A stretch of DNA of 64,000 nt from Heterodontus francisci. Taxonomy: Eukaryota. Shown piece by piece: positions 1 to 64,000 of this stretch. The notes beneath the pieces were generated by a model. That model searched no databases. It saw nothing but the letters and a program-made list of their open reading frames with translations, and had not been told where the DNA came from. Position 1 is the first letter of the stretch, and each line of letters begins with the position of its first letter. The stretch spans positions 5,518,001 through 5,582,000 of the forward strand of contig NC_090404.1 of the NCBI RefSeq assembly GCF_036365525.1. Reading direction: 5' to 3'. A program made the translations under genes and the position numbers.

Positions 1-103
1 TAAGAAGAAGAATATAAGTAACGCGAATAATCATGCAACGGTCTATTTAAGCAATGTGAGAATTCATTAATTTCCCAGGCAAAGGACCATTTCCCTCACT
101 TCG

Positions 104-117
104 CCACCAGAGGGAGC
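104..117 (+). promoter_or_regulatory. CTCF-binding-element-like motif upstream of V1
   Basis: CCACCAGAGGGAGC fits the CTCF core CCASYAGRKGGCRS with one mismatch; ~480 bp upstream of the V1 ATG, same strand. Confidence 0.65.
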
Positions 118-514
118 TCCCTCTTCGTGTTTACAGGCTCACTGCGACAGATCAATAACTAGCGTTGACTCCTAGAGAGGCTGCAGTTCCACAGGCTCCA
201 TAAGGAAAGGGATATTCAGACTACCCTGAATGTGTTGTTTACATTGCGAGGTACAGTTCCACAGGCTCTATTCATTTGGTAAGGAAAGGATTTTACTGGA
301 TTCCAACACCCAGCGTCAGGTCTGTCCCTTTACAGAGTCACTTTCACAAAGCGATGGGATTCCCCTCAATTTCCTCCACAAGGAGGAGAGGAATAAGCTG
401 ATCATTAGACAACTGACATGTCCAGATGTGAACTGCTGGTGAAGGTAGGAACGGATCAACAAACATCCTTACATCGGCTGAACAATATCCAGTTCCAGCC
501 AATCGAAGAGAAGG

Positions 515-594
515 AACCCCACGTGACTGAGACTTTAACTGGGCGGTGCTGCCTTTAAGATGCCAACATTTTAATGTGTTCACTCATTACAAGG
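515..594 (+). promoter_or_regulatory. Putative V1 core promoter
   Basis: CACGTGAC (E-box/CRE-like, 520-527), GGGCGG GC box (541-546) and TTTAAGA TATA-like (554-560) just before the leader ATG at 595. Confidence 0.4.
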
Positions 595-1027
595 ATGTAT
601 TACTCGGTAAAAGTGAATCTATTGGCCGTCATTCTGGCACTGCTAACATGTAGGTACAGGAACTGTACTCAATAACCCGCTGTGTTTATTTGTTATTCAC
701 GTTGCTTCAGTGTTTCATGATCTGAATGTTTTTACAGGTCGATGTCTCTCTGACCGAGTGTTCCAGTCTCCCGCTACGAAAACGGTCCAGAGTGGGGAAC
801 CGGTGAAGCTAATCTGCAGCTATGACATGTCCAGCATTTACACCATGCATTGGTACAAACAGAAATCCGGTCAGAGACTGGAGTGGGTAATAACGCGAGT
901 ATCGACTGGCAAAGAGAGAAGCGGGCGATTTGAACTGGATCTTTCCACTGCGGACAAACGCGGACAATTGGTTATTGAAAACACGGAGAGCGCGGATACG
1001 GCGGTGTATTACTGTGCGATAGAGCCG
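595..1027 (+). CDS. TRAV: TCR alpha/delta-type V segment V1 (leader exon 595-649, intron 650-737, V exon 738-1027), apparently intact
   Basis: Leader MYYSVKVNLLAVILALLT, phase-1 GT..AG intron, V domain DRVFQSP..LICSY..MHWYKQK..DTAVYYCAIEP with conserved Cys/Trp/Cys, then an RSS. Alpha versus delta use cannot be decided from sequence. Confidence 0.92.
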
Positions 1028-1066
1028 CACACTGAGAGGAAACGCGGCAGTCACTGTACAAAAACC
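1028..1066 (+). other. 23-RSS of V1
   Basis: CACACTG + 23 nt + ACAAAAACC (consensus nonamer). Confidence 0.95.
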
Positions 1067-1090
1067 TCCCTCCTGTTTACAGTTCCGAAA

Positions 1091-1164
1091 CAGCGGCAGC
1101 AATCTCTCCAATAACACAGGCCAGGCAAGGAAGGTCAGAGTGAGAGCAGCAAACGGAGGGTGTG
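1091..1164 (-). promoter_or_regulatory. Copy of the V2/V5 upstream module, pointing antisense into the V1 RSS
   Basis: Minus strand TCCGTTTGCTGCTCTCACTCTGACC...TGTGTTATTGGAGAGATTGCTGCCGCTG aligns with 8890-8953(+) and 3880-3953(-). Confidence 0.55.
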
Positions 1165-1527
1165 AGTGGGGCTGCCGCGGGCAGGATTATTGCAGAGTCT
1201 GTCTCTATAATTCCCATTGGATAGCGGGTTTGATCAGAGATACTGACGGTCACAGCATAAAGTATCGGACTGAGGAGTCAGTCACTCAGTGAGTGCAGTC
1301 TATGGTGTGAGAATAGGTTCAACATTTCTTAATTGTGAGTTTATATTAAACGGTACCGAATCGGACATTTTCCTGAGAGTTTGTTTATTTTATGCCGCTG
1401 TGCGACGTCTCACCGACAACATTAACATCAATCTCCTGTACAATTCGTGTTTAAATTGAGGCGTTCACACTGTAAGATAGATTTCCTCTGGGACCGAATT
1501 CTAATGAAATAGTGAATGTTTTCTAAA

Positions 1528-2370
1528 ACTGAAGCAGTCCGTGTAGAAATGCAGCAAGACCTGGACAATATCCAGGCTTGGGCTGACAAGTGGCAAGAAA
1601 CATTTACGCCACACAAGTGCCAGGCAATGACCATCTCCAACAAGAGAGAATCTAATCATCTCCCCTTGATATTCAATGGCATTACCATCGCTGAATCCCC
1701 CACTATCAACATTCTGGGGGTTACCATTGACCAGGAACTGAACTGGACAAGCACATAAATACTGTGGCTACAAGAGCAGGTCAGAGGCTAGGAATCCTGA
1801 GGCGAGTAACTCACCTCCTGACTCCCCAAAGCCTGCCCACCATCTACAAGGCACAAGTCAGGAGTGTGATGGAATACTTGCCTGGATGGGTGCAGCTCCA
1901 ACAACACTCAAGAAGCTCGACACCATCCAGGACAAAGCAGCCCGCTTGATTGACACCCCATCCACAAACATTCACTCCCTCTGCCACCGACGCACAGTAG
2001 CAGCAGTGTTTACCATCTACAAGATGCACTGCAGCAAATCTGAAAGGCTCCTTCGACAGCACCTTCCAAATCCGCGACCTCTACCAACTAGAAGGACAAG
2101 GGCAGCAAATGCAGGGGAACACCACCACCTGCAAGTTCCCCTCCAAGTCACACACCATCCTGACTTGGAACTATATCGCTGTTTCTTTACTCTCGCTGGA
2201 TCAAAATCCTGGAACTCCCTTCGTGACAGCACTGTGGGTGTACCTACCCCACATGGACTGCAGCGGTTCAAGAAGGCAGCTCACCACCACCTTCTCAAGG
2301 GCAATTAGGCATGGGCAATAAATGCTGGCCTAACCAGTGACGCCCACATCCCGTGAATGAATAAAAAAAA
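1528..2370 (+). mobile_element. 5'-truncated CR1/L2-group LINE (ORF2 C-terminal remnant, 3' UTR, A tail)
   Basis: Broken frames QQDLDNIQAWADKWQ..ILGVTIDQELNW..RLGILRRV..YKAQVRSVMEY..LDTIQDKAARLI; ends TGAATGAATAAAAAAAA; second copy at 10946-11382. Confidence 0.88.
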
Positions 2371-2443
2371 CTAATAAAATTATGGTAAAGCAACTTTCCG
2401 AAGAGTTTTCCACGGAGAGATCAGAGAAAATCTTTCTATGTCC

Positions 2444-2835
2444 TTTCCTGGAATGTGGGAGTCACTGACAGGCCAGCATTTGCTGCCCATCCCTAATTGC
2501 CCTCGACAACTTGCGAGGCCATTTAATAGGACAGCTCAGAGTCAGCCACATTGCTGTGGGTCTGGAAACACATGTCAGCCAGACCAGGTAAGCATGGCAG
2601 ATTTATTTCCTTAAAGGACATTAGTGAGCCAAATGGTATTTTACATCAATCGATGATCGTTTCATGGCACAATTACTGAGAGGAGCTGTCAACTTCAGTT
2701 TTCTTAATTAGTAAATTAAACAACTTAATTATTTTGAAGCTAAATTCTACCAGCTGCCGTGGTGGGATTTAAAATTAGCCCGGGCCTCTGCATTACTAGT
2801 TTAGGGACATTACCACTACGTCACTGTCTTCCCCC
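2444..2835 (-). mobile_element. tRNA-derived SINE sharing its 3' tail with the adjacent LINE
   Basis: Minus-strand head with A-box-like TGACGTAGTGG and degenerate B-box TTTAAATCCC; tail GGCAATTAGGGATGGGCAGCAAATGCTGGCCT..CCCACATTCC matches the LINE 3' end at 2300-2355. Confidence 0.75.
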
Positions 2836-2901
2836 TTGTATATTGTAACATAAAGTTAATCAAATTCGACCGGCGTCAATCACCTCAGTCTGATTCGTGA
2901 T

Positions 2902-3001
2902 AGAGTTCCGATGAAAGGACACTGAGTGAAACGTTAACTGTCTTTTCTTCTCCACAGATGCTTCCAGACCGGTTGAGTGTTTCCAGCATTTTCTGTCTCT
3001 G
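2902..3001 (+). mobile_element. Penelope-like element terminal fragment with degenerate minimal hammerhead ribozyme motif
   Basis: AGAGTT-CCGATGA-N13-GAAA-CGTTA-ACTG followed by CTCCACAGATGCT..CCAGCATTTTCTG; family recognised from memory, not from a search. Confidence 0.6.
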
Positions 3002-3016
3002 TAGTCCATCCTCCTA

Positions 3017-3030
3017 CTGCCCTCTGGTGG
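3017..3030 (-). promoter_or_regulatory. CTCF-binding-element-like motif downstream of the V2 RSS
   Basis: Minus strand CCACCAGAGGGCAG, full match to the core consensus; ~160 bp past the V2 nonamer, same strand as V2. Confidence 0.75.
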
Positions 3031-3191
3031 CAAACACTTGCAAATGTTTCAAACTGAGTTCAGATCTGCGCTTCTAAAAGACAGATTTAGCTGATACTGC
3101 AATTGAGCATTAGAAAATGACAGATTGTTGCACCTGACCACCATAATAACTGATTTTAGCTGGCGGATTTTCTGATCTACACAGCGGCGGG

Positions 3192-3230
3192 AGTTTCTGT
3201 GCGAGCATTTACCTGGTTTCCATCAGTGTG
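3192..3230 (-). other. 23-RSS of V2
   Basis: Minus strand CACACTG + 23 nt + ACAGAAACT. Confidence 0.9.
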
Positions 3231-3772
3231 AGCCTCAGGGCGCAGTAATAAACTGCAGTGTCGGTCAGCTGCAGCCCCGAAATGGTTAAGTTGGTGAATT
3301 TTGCCAAGTTGCCGAGTTGTGCAGAGAAGCGGATTTTGGCAAACTCTGCTTTATCTTCAGAACCACTTGTGTATTTAATCAGAATAAACTCAGGTTGTGT
3401 GTCTGGGTGTTGCCGATACCAGTACAAATTATAGCTGCCGCCCCGTGTAGTATTATAGGTACAGATTAAAGTCACCGCTTGTCCTTCTGTCTTAACACTT
3501 GAGGACAGCGGCTGAGTGACTGAATCTCCATGATTCAGATCTGAAAAACATATTCAAACAGGAAAGAATCAAACGGATGTTTAATATTCCGGTTCAAAAC
3601 TTGACGTAAAAGATCCGAAATGAGTTTGATCCAATTTCACCTTCATCACCATCCTTTAACAAATAATAATATGTGGGTTACAGCAGTCAGCGGGAGAATG
3701 GATTTTTACCGGAGCAAAACAGATACTCAGAAGTGATATAGTTATGAGGAATAGATAGATACAGTTCCGCAT
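3231..3772 (-). CDS. TRAV: TCR alpha/delta-type V segment V2 (leader 3772-3727, intron 3726-3541, V exon 3540-3231), apparently intact
   Basis: MRNCIYLFLITISLL/NLNHGDSVTQPLSSSVKTEGQAVTLICTY..LYWYRQ..DTAVYYCALR; donor GTATCT is weak, acceptor TTTTTCAG. Confidence 0.92.
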
Positions 3773-3879
3773 GATGCTCCCCTTGTCTGTAACTCTGCAG
3801 TCGGGGAAATCCTGTGCCGGAACTGAATTACAGATCCCCGTCCCACTGCTCTGCTGAAGCAACCAGTGCTATCAGGGAA

Positions 3880-3953
3880 CAGCGGCAGAAATCTGTCCAA
3901 TAATACAGTGTAAGCAAAGGCGGGTCAGAGTGAGAGCTGCAAACGGAAGCTGT
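3880..3953 (-). promoter_or_regulatory. Conserved V2 upstream module (ETS-like CGGAAG and ATTGG/CCAAT box)
   Basis: Conserved with the equivalent position upstream of V5. Confidence 0.55.
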
Positions 3954-4345
3954 ATGTCAGCCTATCAGTGTTATCACATGTTGGATCCGCCTGTGAGGAA
4001 TTGTCTCACTGTCCTCACATTCTATCACAGCGATCCCTTCCTCCTTTCTTTGAAAGAATCCACCCCAAGGAGACAGAACTCAACACTTGTGACCCGCTGC
4101 TGGGGGATGTGCAAGTGATTCAACCAGTATCCTATCGCAGTGCCGGACTGCAATGACATCGAGTGCAATATCAGATAATTCATACTATCTAAGACATAAA
4201 TGATGAATGAAGCGTGTTCAAATCAAACATTGCAGATTCCATCTCACAGGTACCGCGGCACATACAGAGGGATACCCTGTTACCCTCCATCTAATAAACG
4301 ATGGGATATTTTAAACGTAACTGCTGCCAATTTAAACTGTCATTT

Positions 4346-4410
4346 GATTGGTGCCCAAGTATCATCGGTTCTGACAGACGAGCCAATCCTGTCCCTGGGA
4401 AACGCGCCCC
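4346..4410 (+). promoter_or_regulatory. Duplicated double-CCAAT element (copy 1; copy 2 at 5619-5682)
   Basis: TGATTGG..GTTCTGA.AGAC.AGCCAATCCTGTCCCTGGGAAACGC occurs twice. Confidence 0.45.
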
Positions 4411-4421
4411 AGTTTCCCACT

Positions 4422-5313
4422 AGACCACGAAAAATAGGAGCAGAAGTAGTCCATTCGGCCCATCGAGCCTGCTCCGCCATTCAATACGATCATGGCTGAT
4501 CTTGGGCTTCAATTTCACTTTCCTGCCCGCTCCCGATAGCCTTTGATTCTCTGCGAGACCAAATCTCTATCTACCCCAACCTTAAATGTATTCAATGATC
4601 CACAACCCACAACCCTCTGGGGCAGAGAATTCCAAACATTCACAACCCTTTGAGTGCAGTAATTTCGCCTCATTTCAGTCCAGAATAAAGGACTCCTTCT
4701 CCGGAGACTGTGACCCTGGGTTCAAGCTTCCCTGAGCAGCGGAAACAATCTCTCAGCTTCTACCTGATCGAACCCCCTTCAGAATCTCGTATATCTCAAT
4801 TAAATCACCTCTCATTCTTCTAAACTCCAGAGAATATAGGCCCAATTTACTCAGCCTCTCATCATAGGACAACCCCTTCATCCCAGGGACCAATTTAGTA
4901 AATCTTCACTGCACTGCCTCCAGTGCAAGTATATCCTTTCTTAAATATGGAGACCAAAACTGCAGACAGTATTCCAGGTGCGGTCTCACCAAAGCCCTGT
5001 ATAATTTTACTAAGACTTCTTTACTCCTGTACTCCAATCCCCTCGCAATAAAGGCCAACACGCCATTTACCTTCCTAATAGCCTGCTGCGCCCGCATGTT
5101 AACTTTGTGTATTCCTTGTACGAGTTCCCCCAAGTCTCTCTGAACATCAACACTTACCAGGTTTACACCTTTTAAAAAATATTTTGCTTTTCTATTTTTA
5201 CGACCAAAGTGAACAACCTCACTCTTCCCTACATTATACTCCATTTTCCATCTTGTTGTCCACTCACTTAATCTGTCTATATCTCCTTGCAGCCTCTCTA
5301 CGTCCTCTCCCAG
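4422..5313 (-). mobile_element. 5'-truncated CR1 LINE
   Basis: ORF2 remnant QRDLG..LYRALVRPHLEYCLQFWSPYLRKDILALEAVQ with stop; CR1-type tail GGGCCGAATGGACTACTTCTGCTCCTATT. Confidence 0.9.
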
Positions 5314-5439
5314 TTTTTGTTATTATCTTCTATTACAGCTGCTGCTATTATTGAAACACATTGGGGAACTCGTTAAAACGGGAACTATGGAAATTGGATT
5401 TTCTACACGCTGCACTGTCAAGAAACACGGTAAAAGGAG

Positions 5440-5585
5440 TGAAGACAAAGTGAGAGAGAGGCACAGAGACAAAGATAGGGGTGATAGAGATAAAGAGACT
5501 CCGAACGACAGAGCGAGACAGATAGACATCGAGAAGCAAAGAGAGAGGCAGAGACACGGAGAAAGACACAAGCAGAAAGAGCAAT
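5440..5585. repeat. GA/GACA-rich low-complexity tract
   Basis: Degenerate (GA)n/(GACA)n; explains the spurious ORFs here. Confidence 0.7.
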
Positions 5586-5618
5586 AGTCAGAGGAAGTAA
5601 TTAGTCTGCAACTTACGC

Positions 5619-5682
5619 TGATTGGAGCCCAACTGTTATCCGTTCTGAGAGACCAGCCAATCCTGTCCCTGGGAAACGCCCC
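5619..5682 (+). promoter_or_regulatory. Double-CCAAT element (copy 2), putative V3 promoter
   Basis: ATTGG and CCAAT boxes with upstream GAGGAAGT ETS-like site (5591-5598), ~110 bp before the V3 exon. Confidence 0.45.
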
Positions 5683-5748
5683 TGAGATTCTCAATGAGTG
5701 AAATCTCTCCCTGATCTGAATTTCTTCTTTAAGATCAGTGTCTGTTTC

Positions 5749-6082
5749 ATGTGTTATATTCACATCTATTTGATATATCTCATATTTTTCGAGGTTTAGT
5801 GCCTCAGAATCCGTCTGAGTTAACGGTGCTGGAAGGACAGACCATAATACTGAAGTGCAGTTACTCGACAGCTGGTGTTCCAACTCTGTTTTGGTACATC
5901 CAGTATTCCGGGAAAACTCCGAGATATTTCATGAGGATATATAGCTCGGGACTTGAAGATAAGTCTCCTGATTTCCCAGACAGGTTCTGTGCTATTTTAA
6001 ACAAATAAAACAAAGTGGTTCCTTTAAATATCGCCGGGGTTCTTCCCTCCGACAGCGCCGTGTATTTCTGTGCCATGGAGCC
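5749..6082 (+). pseudogene. TRAV: TCR V pseudogene V3
   Basis: LVPQNPSELTVLEGQTIILKCSYS..LFWYIQY..FPDRFCAILNK*NKVVPLNIAGVLPSDSAVYFCAME; in-frame TAA at 6006-6008; leader-like MCYIHIYLIYLIFF at 5749 is out of frame with no clear intron. Confidence 0.88.
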
Positions 6083-6122
6083 CACGCTGCTGCAGAGATA
6101 GAGCAGATCCCACAGAAAAACC
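6083..6122 (+). other. RSS of V3 (degenerate; best nonamer at 24-nt spacing)
   Basis: CACGCTG + 24 nt + AGAAAAACC. Confidence 0.7.
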
Positions 6123-6146
6123 CACACTGAGAGTTCCCGCCAGTGC

Positions 6147-6160
6147 TCAGCAGAGGGCGC
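6147..6160 (+). promoter_or_regulatory. RSS-adjacent CTCF-like motif (V3)
   Basis: TCAGCAGAGGGCGC, 24 nt after the nonamer. Confidence 0.7.
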
Positions 6161-6818
6161 TCTCACGCCGATTAGCAGAAACAATAATTCAACGTCCTCA
6201 GTGAGAATCACAGGGAACTTCCTCAAAGATAATGAAACACACAGCACTCAAAAACAGGCGAGGAGCACTTGCGAAGTTATAATAGTTGATTTCATCTATA
6301 CTAAAAATGAACTCCACCAATTTATTTGTAATGTGTTAACTTACCTTTTGTCTTTTGATATTCTTTCGGTGACTGTCTGAATATTCGTGCAGCCCTTTCC
6401 CCATTTCCGCTATCAGTTTATCGGCCCCTTTGATCACAGCCGGGCCGCAGAGTCTATTTTATCAGAGTATTTTGCTGGTTCAGAGACAGTTTGCACAAAA
6501 ATTGAGACATCTTACAAGGTAGTGATTGTACTCTTCAGAATAAGGACAGGGCACAGAGTTTCATTCATGTTCATTGTCCTTTCCAGTATCTTTTTAATGC
6601 TTTCATATTTTCTGCTACCGTTTCGCCTTACAATAACCAGACCAGGGTTTCAATCCCACCCGCTCTCTAAATCTGTAACCATTCCCCCTATAAGGATAGG
6701 GTCTGTAGCCCAGCTCGGAGTGTTTCCATTCACTGGCAGCCAGCTCGCCACCTATCGGACTCCCAGCACCACTGCAGACACAAGGAGGTGAGGTGAGAGC
6801 ATCTTGTGTTTGTTACAG

Positions 6819-7050
6819 GAACGAGTGGCGCAAAATCAGTGCCCCAGGATGCGTCTGAGTTAACGGTTCCTGAAGAATAGCCAGTAATGTTCAACTATAG
6901 TTACTCCACATCCTTTCTTTACCACTGTTGGTGCGCCATTATTCAGGGTAAGCTTCGAGATCTTTCCTGAAGCGATAAAACTCGGGGCATGGAGATAAGT
7001 CTCAAAATTTCCCAGACCGGTTCTCTGTTGCAAGGACAAAGACAACAATA
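6819..7050 (+). pseudogene. Decayed, 3'-truncated V relic V3b of the V3 family (not in ORF track)
   Basis: Acceptor TGTTACAG then TSGAKSVPQDASELTVPEE*..YSYST and, after a frameshift, SGHGDKSQNFPDRFSV (V3: LVPQNPSELTVLEG..SGLEDKSPDFPDRFCA); no YxC or RSS; possible leader MFIVLSSIFLMLSYFLL at 6567. Confidence 0.8.
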
Positions 7051-7164
7051 CAACTGTTTAATACAGAAACCTGACTGTCTTCACCCTCCGTGGGTCGGGG
7101 ATCAAACTAACGCCGCAGATAAAAGCAACAAAGTAAACTTAACGGACCTGTAATTACTCGCTGA

Positions 7165-7203
7165 GGTTTTTGTACGGGGTCTTGGCTTTTATCTGACGCT
7201 GTG
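7165..7203 (-). other. 23-RSS of V4
   Basis: Minus strand CACAGCG + 23 nt + ACAAAAACC. Confidence 0.95.
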
Positions 7204-7721
7204 CCTCACTGCACAGTAATAGAGCGCCCCGTCCTCCACACTCAGGCCGCTTATGTTGAGGTAACCGTACTTTTTAGACTTGTCAGCAGTCGCCAGATAT
7301 CGTCCTGAGATTTCGTTTCCCTGAAGTGCTACTACTTTGGTGATAATCCAGGTTGGAGGCTGTGCAGGTTTCTGCCGATACCATTGCATGCTGTAAATAT
7401 CCGGGTTTGTATATTCGCAATCTAACTGCACCAAACTCCCTTCTGACACGGTTATCATCAGCGGAGACTGAGTTACTGGATCTGCACCTAGTCCAGCTGT
7501 GAAGGTAGAGGGAAAAAAAGATCGGCAGGTTAAGCAGGGTTGATCTAAACTTGTGTCTCTCTGTATAAGAATGTGTGACTTCCCATCTCCACAGCTCTCC
7601 TCCAATATGGATATTTCTGATGGAGAACAAACTCTTTGCATTAACCTGCCTTGATTAAACTAATCCAATACTTACTGTCCAACACAGCCGCCAGTATTAT
7701 CAGAAACATGTCTGACTGCAT
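7204..7721 (-). CDS. TRAV: TCR alpha/delta-type V segment V4 (leader 7721-7676, intron 7675-7497, V exon 7496-7204), apparently intact
   Basis: MQSDMFLIILAAVLD/TGLGADPVTQSP..LDCEY..MQWYRQK..DGALYYCAVR; GTAAGT donor, pyrimidine tract + ACAG acceptor; related to V1. Confidence 0.93.
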
Positions 7722-7913
7722 CCCTCGCAGTGAATGGGAATGGAATGAGCCAGAGATTGAGAAGCGGGGTGGTGGGGGGGAGAGGTAACCCGGGGCATCG
7801 TTCCACCCGCATACTGCAGGGGGCGGCCCCATCGTGACCTCACTCGGACTGCGGCCCCCTATTGGCCTTGGCGCTGGCATCGCGTGACTTTGTAATTGCC
7901 GTGTTTGAACTTG

Positions 7914-7927
7914 GCGCCCACTGCTGG
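7914..7927 (-). promoter_or_regulatory. CTCF-like motif upstream of V4
   Basis: Minus strand CCAGCAGTGGGCGC in a GC/CpG-rich region with a CCAAT box (7861-7865), ~190 bp upstream of the ATG. Confidence 0.6.
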
Positions 7928-8104
7928 CGGATTCTGTTCAATCCGATTTACAATGGGGCCAGTGAGTCCGTTCAGGCATATTCAAACAGGACTGTCAGAC
8001 ATCGTCTCCCAGAAAGCTAAATTGAAACCGATTAGACCTAACCTTTATTTTTGTTGGATGTTTCTGGCAGAAAGTGAAACCAACCCTTTTTAAATCACTG
8101 TTTT

Positions 8105-8710
8105 GAACATCGGCTGGTGTTCTCTGTCCAATTCTGGGCAACGTGAATTAGAAAGAACGTAAAGACGTTGGAGAAAGCGCGGAGAGATACACCAGAATGG
8201 TAGCAGGGGTGAGGGACTTTTATGTGAACAGATTAGAGACACTGCTTTTGCTCTGCAATGCAAATGTACATTGCATACAAAGTTTTGTGAATAAATATAT
8301 TTTTGAAAAAAAATAGAGAAACTGGGATTTTTCTCCTTATAATAAAGAAGTTTAAGGAGGGTCTTAATTGAGATGCCCAAACCTATACCTGATTTTGATC
8401 GAGTAGATTACACGTAACTGTTTCCACTAGCAGAAAATTCAATAACCCGCGCACTCCAATATAAAAGAATTGTTGGAAAAATACAAGGAGAGATTATATT
8501 TATTTCTTACACTGTTTTCTTAAAATTTGGAATGCACTTCCTAAAAGGGTGGCGGAAGCAGATTCAGCAGTAATTTTCAAAAGGGTATTGTATATAATTT
8601 GGAAAAGCTGTGGAAAATACGGGAAGTGAAAGATGAATTGGGGAGCTATTTCAAAAAGCACAGGCACGATAGGCCGAATGGCCTCATTCCGTGCTCTAAC
8701 CTTCTATTTG
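8105..8710 (+). mobile_element. Old degraded CR1 LINE 3' fragment
   Basis: Remnants such as TGGAATGCACTTCCTAAAAGGGTGGCGGAAGCAGATTCA and tail GGCCGAATGGCCTC. Confidence 0.7.
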
Positions 8711-8889
8711 TCTATTCCCTCCATGTCCCTCCCACTCTGTTTGTTGCCAGTTAATTGAACAGTGAGCAGGTGCAGGATGGCCACAGACTTCCGAAGCTTC
8801 AATCGTCACTATTTCCGCTCCATCGGTTCCGAGTGCAGCTGAGTGTCGCCGCACACTTCGCTCAATGTTGAGTCTGCGGTATCTCCGCC

Positions 8890-8953
8890 CACAGCTTCCG
8901 TTTGCTGCTCTCGCTCTGACCCGATTGTGTTATTGGAGCGATTGGTGCCGCTG
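8890..8953 (+). promoter_or_regulatory. Conserved V5 upstream module
   Basis: CAGCTTCCGTTTGCTGCTCTCGCTCTGACCCG..TTATTGG, homologous to the V2 upstream region. Confidence 0.55.
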
Positions 8954-9061
8954 GTCTATTCTTGTAATTGGTTGAATCAGCGGTGCAGTGGGACGGGGAT
9001 CTGTATTTCTGCTCCGACAGAGACTTTCCTGCACTGCAGAGTTACAGATTCAGGAAGTATC

Positions 9062-9565
9062 GTGGGGAACCGTCTCTCACCGCTTCTCATCATTATATCA
9101 CTTCTCAGTAAGTATTTCATTCCCAGTAAAAATCCATTCTCCCTCTGACTGCTGTCACCCAGATGGGATTGTTGGTAAAATAATAGTGATGGTGGTAATA
9201 CCGGTTACGTTGATCAATATGAGGTTGATGCTGATTGGTGACATTACTTTTTTAATGTTAGAATGGAGCCACCAAGACACAGTGGAACAGCCGGTTGCTG
9301 AAATGACTGTTGAAGAGGAAATTAACGTCACTCTAACCTGCACCTTGAAAACAAGCGCTTCTAACCCTGATGTGTACTGGTACAGTCAGCAACCCGGGCA
9401 GCCTCCACAGTACTTGCTTCGTCTTATTGGAGGGAATCTATACAGGAACACCGGCATCGCTGTTCAGTTCTCGGCTACGTTTAATAAAACTGCCAAGATC
9501 ACCGAGCTAACGGTCGGCAACACCCTGATCTCCGACAGCGCCGTGTATTTCTGTGCCATGAGCCC
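9062..9565 (+). CDS. TRAV: TCR V segment V5 (leader 9062-9107 starting with GTG, intron 9108-9261, V exon 9262-9565); open frame, start codon altered
   Basis: (V)GNRLSPLLIIISLL/KWSHQDTVEQP..VTLTCTL..VYWYSQQ..DSAVYFCAMS; GTAAGT donor; GTG aligns with the V2 ATG. Confidence 0.85.
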
Positions 9566-9605
9566 CACACTGTTGCAGAGATATAGCAGATCCCGGGCAA
9601 AAACC
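9566..9605 (+). other. RSS of V5 (24-nt spacer)
   Basis: CACACTG + 24 nt + GCAAAAACC. Confidence 0.8.
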
Positions 9606-9629
9606 CACACTGAGAGTTCCAGTTAGCGC

Positions 9630-9643
9630 TCACCAGAGGGCGC
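9630..9643 (+). promoter_or_regulatory. RSS-adjacent CTCF-like motif (V5)
   Basis: TCACCAGAGGGCGC, 24 nt after the nonamer. Confidence 0.7.
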
Positions 9644-10215
9644 GCTTGCACCGTTAAACAGAAACAATAATTCAGACTCCACAGTGAGAGACACAGAGAG
9701 ATTCTTAAAACTGCGACAGAGCACAAACCTCAACAACAGGCGAGGTCCACATCTTAGTCTGTGACCGCAACTTGCAGTTACCATACAAATCAGCTTTACA
9801 AATCGACGCCTGCTGCCTTTACTCACCTTTTGTCTTTTCCTGCCTACTTGTTCCTTACCCTGTCTCCACACTTTATCCATAATTGTATACATTTACTTCT
9901 TCTAGTCTTTAGTTTACAGATATAAACTTTAATTCAGAACCATTCCAACTCAGCTGCCCATCGATTCAGTCCTGGTTTAACCCGAATTCACTAATAAAGA
10001 TTTCGCTTATTATTGATTCTCCTGTCCCGAGACTGCTTCCCCCGCCACCAACCCCCCCCCCCCCACCCCCACACACTATGTAATGAATGTGAAAGTGCCG
10101 CAGCTCTTATAGAAAGGCAGAGTTGTAGAACTTTCGGAAGGGACATTATTATTTAATTCCGTTCCTTACAAGTGGAGACTCCATGTGATCAGACTGCTTG
10201 CGGAACTCCCGCCCC

Positions 10216-10285
10216 CAGCTTCCGTTTCTCTCTGTCTCTCTGACCCGCCGCCGTCCATACCCTGTGTAGTTGAAGAGATTGTTCG
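10216..10285 (+). promoter_or_regulatory. Orphan degenerate copy of the V upstream module
   Basis: CAGCTTCCGTTTCTCTCTGTCTCTCTGACCCG..TGTGTAGTTGAAGAGATTG; no leader or V exon found downstream. Confidence 0.45.
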
Positions 10286-10513
10286 CTCTCTTTGCCTTCT
10301 CATTCCCGGTCTCCACATTTTCCCCACAGTCGTTTAAATTTCCCTTTTCGGTCTTCAGTTTAACAGCATAAAATCTTTGTTTTTGCTCGGTGTTTTACTT
10401 GAGAACCGCTGCAACCCACCTTCCTATGAGCATGAACTGCCAGATATGGTCACTGAATAAACATAGAATTTCTCACACCCTGTCCACCGACATCTGAATA
10501 CTTCTTAGAATAT

Positions 10514-10527
10514 CCAGCAGAGGGCAT
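10514..10527 (+). promoter_or_regulatory. CTCF-like motif at the end of the V cluster
   Basis: CCAGCAGAGGGCAT. Confidence 0.6.
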
Positions 10528-10577
10528 CAGATCACCGTGTTCCTTTTGTGGATCCACCCCCCCGGGGAGAGAAGAAT

Positions 10578-10945
10578 TAGACTTTATATAGCAACTTTCA
10601 CATCCTCAGGAATACCCAAAGCATTTCACAGCCAATGAATTACCTTTGAAGTGTAATTGTTTTATTGGAAAAGGTGTCAGCAAGATCTCATAAGCAGTAA
10701 ATGAGATGAAGAACCAGTTAAGCTGTGTTGGTGGTGTTGTTTGACTGGTCAAGAGGAGAACTCCCAGCTCTTCATCAAATAGTGCCATATGATCTTTGAG
10801 ATCGACCTCAATGGGTAAATAGCACTTTAGTTTAACGTCTCATCTGAAAGATGGCAGCACTCCCTCAACACGGCCCTGAAGTGTCAGCCTAGATTATGTG
10901 GTGAACTAAAGTAGCGCTTGAATCCATAAATTACTAACTCAGAGT
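10578..10945 (-). mobile_element. DeuSINE-type (SacSINE1/AmnSINE1-like) SINE, degraded
   Basis: GTTTAACGTCTCATCTGAAAGATGGCAGCACTCCCTCA..GTGTCAGCCTAGATTATGTG core, recognised from memory. Confidence 0.65.
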
Positions 10946-11382
10946 CCAGGACAAAGCAGGCCGCTTGATTGGCACCCCATCTACAAACATTCACTCCCTC
11001 CACCACCGACGCACAGCGGCAGCAGTGTGTACCATCTACAAGATGCACTGCAGCCACGCACCAAGGCCCCTCAGACAGCACCTTCCAAACGCGCGACCTC
11101 TACCAACTAGAAGGACAAGGGCAGCAAATACATGGGAACACCACCACCTGCAAGTTCCCCTCCAAGTCACACACCATTCTGACTTGGAACAATATCGCCG
11201 TTCCTCCACTGTCGCTGGGTCAAAATCCTGGAACTCCCTTCCTAACAGCACTGTGGGTGTACCTACCCCACATGAGCGGTTCAAGAAGGCAGCTCACCAC
11301 CACCTTCTCAAGGGCAGTTAGGGATGGGCAATAAATGATGGCTTAGCCAGCGATACTCACATCCCATGAATGAATTTTTAAA
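10946..11382 (+). mobile_element. LINE 3' fragment, same family as 1528-2370
   Basis: Closely similar to 1926-2365. Confidence 0.9.
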
Positions 11383-61200: not shown

Positions 61201-64000
61201 CATTCCAGATCTGAACCACTCACCCAGTCTCCAACACACTCTCAGACAGTACATTCCAGATCTGAACCACTCACCCAGTCTCCCATACACTCTCAGACAG
61301 TACATTCCAGATCTGAACCACTCACCCAGTCTCCAATACAATCTCAGACAGTACATTCCAGATCTGAACCACTCACCCAGTCTCCAATACAATCTCAGGC
61401 AGTGCATTCCAGATCTGAACCACTCACCCAGTCTCCAATACAATCTCAGGCAGTGCATTCCAGATCTGAACCACTCACCCAGTCTCCCATACACTCTCAG
61501 ACAGTACATTCCAGATCTGAACCACTCACCCAGTCTCCAATACAATCTCAGGCAGTGCATTCCAGATCTGAACCACTCACCCAGTCTCCCATACACTCTC
61601 AGACAGTACATTCCAGATCTGAACCACTCACCCAGTCTCCAACACACTCTCAGACAGTACATTCCAGATCTGAACCATTCACCCAGTCTCCAACACACTC
61701 TCAGACAGTACATTCCAGATCTGAACCACTCACCCAGTCTCCCATACACTCTCAGACAGTACATTCCAGATCTGAACCACTCACCCAGTCTCCAATACAA
61801 TCTCAGGCAGTACATTCCAGATCTGAACCACTCACCCAGTCTCCCATACACTCTCAGACAGTACATTCCAGATCTGAACCACTCACCCAGTCTCCAACAC
61901 ACTCTCAGACAGTACATTCCAGATCTGAACCACTCACCCAGTCTCCCATACACTCTCAGACAGTACATTCCAGATCTGAACCACTCACCCAGTCTCCAAC
62001 ACACTCTCAGACAGTACATTCCAGATCTGAACCACTCACCCAGTCTCCATTACACTCTCAGACAGTACATTCCAGATCTGAACCACTCACCCAGTCTCCA
62101 ACATACTCTCAGACAGTGCATTCCAGATCTGAACCACTCACCCAGTCTCCCATACACTCTCAGACAGTACATTCCAGATCTGAACCACTCACCCAGTCTC
62201 CAACATACTCTCAGACAGTGCATTCCAGATCTGAACCACTCACCCAGTCTCCCATACACTCTCAGACAGTACATTCCAGATCTGAACCACTCACCCAGTC
62301 TCCAACACACTCTCAGACAGTACATTCCAGATCTGAACCACTCACCCAGTCTCCCATACACTCTCAGACAGTACATTCCAGATCTGAACCACTCACCCAG
62401 TCTCCAATACAATCTCAGGCAGTACATTCCAGATCTGAACTACTCACCCAGTCTCCAATACAATCTCAGGCAGTGCATTCCAGATCTGAACCACTCACCC
62501 AGTCTCCAACACACTCTCAGACAGTACATTCCAGATCTGAACCACTCACCCAGTCTCCAACACACTCTCAGACAGTACATTCCAGATCTGAACCACTCAC
62601 CCAGTCTCCCATACACTCTCAGACAGTACATTCCAGATCTGAACCACTCACCCAGTCTCCAATACAATCTCAGACAGTACATTCCAGATCTGAACCACTC
62701 ACCCAGTCTCCAATACAATCTCAGGCAGTGCATTCCAGATCTGAACCACTCACCCAGTCTCCAATACAATCTCAGGCAGTGCATTCCAGATCTGAACCAC
62801 TCACCCAGTCTCCCATACACTCTCAGACAGTACATTCCAGATCTGAACCACTCACCCAGTCTCCAATACAATCTCAGGCAGTGCATTCCAGATCTGAACC
62901 ACTCACCCAGTCTCCCATACACTCTCAGACAGTACATTCCAGATCTGAACCACTCACCCAGTCTCCAACACACTCTCAGACAGTACATTCCAGATCTGAA
63001 CCATTCACCCAGTCTCCAACACACTCTCAGACAGTACATTCCAGATCTGAACCACTCACCCAGTCTCCCATACACTCTCAGACAGTACATTCCAGATCTG
63101 AACCACTCACCCAGTCTCCAATACAATCTCAGGCAGTGCATTCCAGATCTGAACCACTCACCCAGTCTCCAACACACTCTCAGACAGTACATTCCAGATC
63201 TGAACCACTCACCCAGACTCCAACACACTCTCAGGCAGTACATTCCAGATCTGAACCATTCACCCAGTCTCCATCACACTCTCAGACAGTACATTCCAGA
63301 TCTGAACCACTCACCCAGTCTCCAACACACTCTCAGGCAGTGCATTCCAGATCTGAACCACTCACCCAGTCTCCAACACACTCTCAGACAGTACATTCCA
63401 GATCTGAACCATTCACCCAGTCTCCAACACACTCTCAGACAGTACATTCCAGATCTGAACCATTCACCCAGTCTCCATCACACTCTCAGACAGTACATTC
63501 CAGATCTGAACCACTCACCCAGTCTCCAACACACTCTCAGGCAGTGCATTCCAGATCTGAACCACTCACCCAGTCTCCAACACACTCTCAGACAGTACAT
63601 TCCAGATCTGAACCATTCACCCAGTCTCCAACACACTCTCAGACAGTACATTCCAGATCTGAACCATTCACCCAGTCTCCAACACACTCTCAGACAGTAC
63701 ATTCCAGATCTGAACCACTCACCCAGTCTCCAACACACTCTCAGACAGTACATTCCAGATCTGAACCACTCACCCAGTCTCCATCACACTCTCAGACAGT
63801 ACATTCCAGATCTGAACCACTCACCCAGTCTCCAACACACTCTCAGAGAGTACATTCCAGATCTGAACCACTCACCCAGTCTCCAACACACTCTCAGACA
63901 GTACATTCCAGATCTGAACCACTCACCCAGTCTCCATCACACTCTCAGACAGTACATTCCAGATCTGAACCACTCACCCAGTCTCCAACACACTCTCAGA
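13296..64000. repeat. 51-bp tandem satellite, ~990 head-to-tail copies, continuing past the window end
   Basis: Consensus CCAACACACTCTCAGACAGTACATTCCAGATCTGAACCACTCACCCAGTCT; no inversion or TE insertion seen; CpG-free consensus, C/A-rich plus strand, one BglII site per consensus unit. Confidence 0.99.

Follow-up and report, generated by a model that had tools for sequence, protein, structure and literature searches.

The 64-kb stretch of the genome of the shark Heterodontus francisci analysed here (the window; G000:C34, NC_090404.1, positions 5,518,001-5,582,000) lies in an alpha/delta locus of the T-cell receptor (TCR), within a ~10-10.5 Mb array of variable (V) gene segments whose alpha and delta labels are drawn from its layout. 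Five V exons bearing recombination signal sequences (RSSs) fall within the first 9.6 kb of the window, together with six matches to the binding motif of CTCF. We describe these motifs in the window and along the array, where CTCF-type motifs are traits of V families and are not supplied one per V, and consider how they may act in V(D)J recombination.

On the plus strand, V1 (family f9; 595..1027) has a leader from 595, an intron and a V exon at ~737-1027 in an open frame, followed by a 23-RSS at 1028..1066. V2 (f4; minus strand, 3231..3772) has its V exon at ~3231-3541, its leader ATG at 3772 and its 23-RSS at 3192..3230. V3 (f0, subfamily A; plus strand, 5790..6082) is a pseudogene with an in-frame TAA at 6006-6008, in which no leader was detected; its RSS (6083..6122) has a 24-bp spacer, a 22-bp reading being also possible. 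V4 (f3; minus strand, 7204..7709) is in an open frame, with the V exon at ~7204-7500, the leader ATG at 7709, a 23-RSS at 7165..7203 and promoter elements at 7835..7865 on the same strand, which we take to be a CRE-like octamer (7835) and a CCAAT motif (7861). V5 (f1; plus strand, 9062..9565) has an open V exon at ~9261-9565 and an RSS at 9566..9605, again with a 24-bp spacer; its leader begins with GTG at 9062, where all 14 intact paralogues compared have ATG. Of the five exons, four were scanned and all four match the Pfam V-set domain, and a PDB search returned generic V domains only. V1 and V4, described as related in the initial annotation, are indeed the closest pair, at 41% amino-acid identity as compared with 28-38% for the others.

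A scan of the 64 kb with the published CTCF consensus CCASYAGRKGGCRS (quoted in PMC6746451), tolerating up to one mismatch, yields exactly six matches, at 104(+), 3017(-), 6147(+), 7914(-), 9630(+) and 10514(+), each where the initial annotation had placed it; shuffled versions of the window gave 0.61 on average, and none of 100 shuffles reached six. Bit scores were computed with a version of the JASPAR matrix MA0139.1, against which the six score 15.6-23.8 bits; bases 1-11000 hold six sites of at least 15 bits as against 0.1 in Markov shuffles, and the matrix also picks up a weaker pair, 7810(+) and 7850(-), both upstream of V4. When sites are sorted by homology, those beside V3 (6147..6160, +) and V5 (9630..9643, +) belong to one class (class 0), each lying 24 bp behind the nonamer with one mismatch to the consensus, and the V4 site (class 1; 7914..7927, -) lies ~205 bp upstream of the ATG. 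The V2 site (class 8; 3017..3030, -) is found ~160 bp (+158) beyond the RSS, and the site at 104..117 (+; class 3), upstream of V1, is the homologue of a distal upstream site in family f12. The weaker motif at 7810..7828 (+; class 5, five copies) opposes V4. The intergenic motif at 10514..10527 (+; class 2), assigned no V of its own in the initial annotation, lies between f1 and f4 genes, and its class recurs at distances of 0.4-1.1 kb on the downstream side of f1 genes and of 1.4-2.1 kb on the upstream side of f4 genes. Every V of the window (5/5) has a same-strand motif within ~630 bp.

Beyond the window we sampled 1,154 kb, about one-ninth of the 10.5-Mb array, in stretches picked mostly by V coding hits; these contain 236 V segments, 128 of them intact by frame and RSS, which were grouped into families. 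The IgH (immunoglobulin heavy chain)-like/NAR-TCR-like families f2 and f18 were set aside, leaving 210 TCR-type segments. Scanning with the matrix against background, as proposed with the initial annotation, reveals enrichment: 144 sites of at least 15 bits in the sample and one in 200 kb of evenly spaced windows, in which a matrix-free check found none. Most of the sites (129/144) fall within 2 kb of a V. Among V segments chosen on coding sequence, their distribution follows family lines. In f1, the V5 family, 27 of 34 members and 14 of 15 intact ones carry a site 24 bp behind the RSS, and 12 of 37 members of f0, the V3 family, have a site; in f3, the V4 family, an upstream site accompanies 19 of 20 genes and all ten intact ones, and upstream sites are also present in f12 (4/5) and f10 (4/7). 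Family f13 has a site ~600 bp downstream in three of five genes, and the V1 and V2 families have one in 1/8 (f9) and 1/19 (f4), respectively. A matrix-free recount agrees with these counts and finds no site in the 25 genes of f2. Two stable layouts are shown, one 24 bp behind the nonamer (f1 and subfamily A of f0, or f0A) and the other upstream of the V exon by 300-500 bp, in f3, f12 and part of f10, and both have been copied and inverted along with their V. The proposal that a single locus, here shark TCR alpha/delta, has sites of both kinds, promoter-upstream and RSS-adjacent, is borne out. The broader one, that each RSS-bearing V has a co-oriented motif, describes the window and fails for the locus, in which a same-strand site within 700 bp accompanies 82 of the 210 TCR-type segments, 38 of the 108 intact ones and 28 of 82 in a less targeted early subset.

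The two window sites that are not family traits have histories of their own. The initial annotation had assigned V1 and V4 a common upstream layout, but their sites belong to different homology classes. In alignments, bases 1-150 correspond to the flank upstream of an f12 gene located at 13.4016 Mb, and bases 162-740 to the stretch separating that gene from its f9 neighbour, while the ~0.8 kb containing the f12 V is absent from the window; the V1 site was thus inherited from a deleted f12 neighbour. For V2, two homologues of the site were found, one next to a V2-like remnant, and in the two closest V2 paralogues the 3' flank has been replaced. V2, V3 and V5 do all have their sites behind the RSS, as first described.

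The RSS-side site is part of a 3' cassette that has been exchanged between families. The coding region of f0A genes is 66-86% like that of subfamily B (f0B) and 36-64% like f1, but from ~15 nt before the V end the likeness reverses, to 79-91% with f1 and down to 32% with f0B, which indicates that the V end, the RSS with its 24-bp spacer and the site were swapped between families. The initial annotation had the site travelling as part of the V cassette; it does move with the RSS end, though not with the V coding region. V2 may represent a second chimera, as its leader and promoter (window 3490-3950) resemble family f1 and not other f4 genes; its splice donor is non-consensus. Within the RSS-side cassette, the nonamer and the 19-mer CTCF motif are separated by 20-22 bp, about two helical turns, in all 21 intact carriers, and the 24-bp spacer occurs in 23 of 26 site-bearing versus 4 of 16 site-less f0/f1 genes and in none of 82 intact genes of other families.

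The motif also appears to be under constraint. Among ungapped cassette copies 38 of 40 score at least 13 bits, and across an alignment of 43 copies (f0 type-B genes, whose 3' end is different, were omitted, as were truncated or edge copies and an f1 copy whose flank had been replaced) each of the eight high-information positions of the core underwent on average 0.50 parsimony changes versus 4.51 in the flanks, a rate about nine times slower that none of 91 slid masks matched. The 20 distinct variants cost on average -1.13 bits, compared with -3.29 for random changes (p=5e-5). The core of the V4-family site shows a weaker form of this constraint, with 0.50 versus 1.69 flank changes over 16 of the 20 copies (p=0.005; 8 of 163 slid masks as low). 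A conserved 10-bp block lies 6 bp upstream of the RSS-side core (window 6127-6138 and 9610-9621) and resembles the CTCF upstream module. Contigs from three other organisms cover the cassette and list one core difference, in a single low-depth contig; as the contigs had been chosen for 80% likeness across the stretch, they lend modest support.

These patterns bear on one alternative, namely that the motifs are functionless: a few GC-rich sequences that arose by chance and multiplied as their V cassettes were duplicated. In its favour, the 158 sites of at least 14 bits collapse to 32 homology classes; common orientation within a family is expected from descent, and the V1 pairing is an accident of deletion. 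Passive hitchhiking does not readily account for a core that is kept better than the RSS itself (0.5 changes per position, versus 1-4 for the heptamer and 1-6 for the nonamer), nor for the commonest core variant, a C-to-G change at a position where CTCF accepts either base, nor for the at least 12 unrelated classes found within 1 kb of a V on its strand, and we regard this explanation as very unlikely.

Orientation must be read against the layout of the locus. V domains occur on both strands from ~3.36 to 13.9 Mb of contig C34, with C1 exons interspersed. At the low end, all on the minus strand, are a C-alpha-like constant (C) exon at 3.1845 Mb, 37 joining (J) segments forming a J-alpha array at 3.191-3.272 Mb, a C-delta-like exon at 3.3037 Mb and a J-delta cluster of nine J segments at 3.321-3.340 Mb; the C-alpha exon, which the Pfam PF09291 profile did not detect and which emerged from a translation of the sequence below the J array, occurs once more, in identical form, on a separate contig. 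At 3.41-3.46 Mb there is a mirror-image delta-like cluster, its C-delta-like exon being 60% identical to the first. In sharks, IgH clusters are reported to be linked to TCR alpha/delta (PMC12227049); here, two mirror-image NAR-TCR-like/IgH-like V clusters occupy 3.36-3.46 Mb, each leading into a J set and a C-delta-like exon of its own. Among named relatives, those nearest to V2 are cartilaginous-fish proteins; one carries the label TCR alpha. With the J-C end low and on the minus strand, minus-strand V segments would join by deletion and plus-strand segments by inversion, the orientation of 57 of 123 intact V segments sampled.

Within this layout, sites are oriented with the V strand, as the initial annotation had it, and as a whole do not favour the J-C end. 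Every one of the 39 sites lying 150 bp or less from a V shares its strand, most of them being from one class; of 15 independent strong classes with a V no more than 1 kb away, 12 are same-strand (p=0.035). Of all 144 sites, 82 are on the plus strand and 62 on the minus strand, that of J-alpha and C-alpha. Since f3 and f1 genes commonly stand head to head, with an opposite-facing f1 gene 1.2-1.3 kb from 15 of 23 class-1 sites, one module carries both orientations.

These data speak to a second alternative, an Igh-like mechanism in which RAG scans one way, only J-C-facing (minus) sites stall extrusion and help their V, and plus-strand copies are inert until inverted. In its favour, the RSS-side sites stand to the RSS, in position and strand, as mouse proximal VH sites do (22 bp in the shark by the convention of PMC6746451, compared with 17-19 bp in the mouse and 19 or 48 bp in humans), 15 of 19 V4-family sites face the J-C end, and plus-strand motifs near that end (3.292, 3.488 and 3.505 Mb) face the V array. 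Yet most RSS-side cassettes face away from J-C (28 of 40, and 16 of 21 among those that are intact), almost half of the intact V segments are in inversional orientation, and inverted V genes fail at mouse Igh (PMC10121685); the second C-delta-like exon is also at the low end, and would thus offer plus-strand V segments no deletional partner. We consider one-way scanning unlikely. Of the motifs just mentioned, that at 3,292,036 lies between C-delta and the first J-alpha, where the mouse has its TEA site, and those at 3,487,906 and 3,505,183 sit in the interval that divides the delta clusters from the main V array.

A third possibility is that CTCF acts locally, by positioning nucleosomes, protecting against methylation or insulating the V promoter and RSS from repeats, without long-range anchoring. 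The constant distance from the nonamer, about two helical turns, an orientation linked to the V and not to the locus, retention of the motif at pseudogenes, the long satellite that flanks the V clusters (window 13-64 kb) and the close association of the site with the 24-bp spacer all fit this explanation, but the mouse counterparts are cohesin-dependent loop anchors (bioRxiv 2020.01.01.891473) and the cassettes have no CpG signature of their own. A purely local role strikes us as doubtful.

Our best reading is an Igk-like fold of multiple loops and not Igh-like one-way scanning. Specifically, we hold it somewhat better than an even bet that CTCF binds these sites and stalls cohesin beside the V, in a fold that would let V segments on either strand reach the recombination centre. 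As putative local cohesin anchors, the sites would make an encounter between the attached V and a RAG-loaded diversity (D)/J end more likely; the locus may fold as many small loops, as in mouse Igk, with V-J pairing by diffusion followed by deletion or inversion, and the head-to-head f3/f1 module could offer one J-C-facing site whichever way it lies. Mouse precedents for these steps are available (PMC6746451, PMC5859386, PMC10121685, PMC10772921): RSS-side sites promote proximal VH use during cohesin-driven scanning, Igk, with its V segments in mixed orientations, folds into many loops, and diffusion can join inverted substrates at Tcrb.

Several observations weigh against this reading. The sample is skewed towards site-bearing families, and ~60% of its TCR-type V segments have no nearby same-strand site; in the matrix-free recount, the intact families f5 (0/14) and f6 (0/12) have none. 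Three of the 15 independent classes are not same-strand, and f7 has an opposite-strand site in all six intact genes. The RSS-side motif reaches at least 13 bits in 19 of 20 broken copies as in 19 of 20 intact ones, so the constraint on it does not depend on the V being functional, which speaks against a simple role in usage, and both RSS-side carriers of the window, V3 and V5, look non-functional. The p-values given above overstate independence because the copies are related and have exchanged sequence, and the CpG observed/expected ratio fails to separate cassettes from site-less RSS flanks (0.54 vs 0.58).

The shark locus shares features with three mammalian systems and coincides with none. 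Like the sites at mouse D-proximal and human IGHV RSSs, the RSS-side sites lie at a fixed short distance behind the nonamer, are limited to certain V families and are better conserved than the DNA between RSS and site (PMC6746451, bioRxiv 2020.01.01.891473). They differ in belonging to TCR alpha/delta V segments, in persisting at pseudogenes, where in the mouse the non-functional 7183/Q52 genes usually have no site, and in mostly pointing away from J-C, whereas more than 98% of mouse VH sites share one orientation (same sources); as its copies are not uniformly oriented towards D-J-C, the cassette is not regarded here as of the Igh type. Mouse Tcra/d is the same type of locus and likewise has sites upstream of V promoters, as in f3 and f12, but 129 of its 144 sites face J-C, as against 62 of the 144 sampled here (and 15 of 19 in f3), and Table 2 of PMC5859386 lists no RSS-adjacent class. 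In mouse Igk, about half of the V segments are inverted, CTCF sites face both ways, and many small loops plus diffusion have been proposed (PMC10121685, PMC5859386), but its sites are reported to be mostly intergenic and uncorrelated with V orientation (PMC5859386), whereas those of the shark are family-fixed and follow the V strand.

In the literature examined, CTCF control of V(D)J recombination is confined to mammals; the main text of PMC6746451, for example, names only mouse, human, chimpanzee and rabbit, and our search, whose coverage excluded most subscription journals, returned no report of CTCF at shark receptor loci. The shark locus has both mammalian layouts, in a new combination that ties sites to V families within an array of mixed orientation. 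The same cassette facing towards and away from J-C, with and without an intact site, constitutes a natural experiment, so that repertoire sequencing alone can ask whether convergent orientation is needed and whether scanning or diffusion is older. As a tentative and more far-reaching possibility, the RSS-plus-CTCF cassette may be a mobile shark element, swapped between V families, that tunes usage regardless of orientation and makes up for the 24-bp spacer being a poor one; on that view, V choice would have come under CTCF control before sharks and mammals diverged, with small-loop diffusion preceding one-way scanning.

Other features of the locus deserve mention. In a tandem array at 8,685,000-8,724,000 of C34, 16 plus-strand f1 genes follow one another with a period of 2.56 kb. 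In the window, a degenerate f0-like V remnant lies at 6838-7027 (+), with which the RSS scan pairs no RSS, and the DNA beyond the V cluster is repeat and a 51-bp C-rich satellite, present from 13,296 onward (scanned to 20,000), whose strand skew continues to the window end at 64,000. Some 17-30 kb downstream of the C-alpha exon, a ~42-bp minisatellite (3,154,000-3,167,700) contains 38 plus-strand CTCF-like units that face the J and V arrays and are placed like the mouse 3' anchors; its candidacy as a super-anchor was rejected, as only some units match and a related array occurs on C45. Sixteen control loci on other contigs were also considered, and ten without an RSS-bearing V were dropped. 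Two IgL (immunoglobulin light chain)-like cluster loci on C8 have no CTCF motif in 20 kb. Putative TCR-beta-like V arrays (L148, L149 and L151; contigs C761 and C779) carry same-strand CTCF motifs, one of which follows an RSS by ~40 bp, and also have a 45-bp repeat containing 27 copies of the motif.

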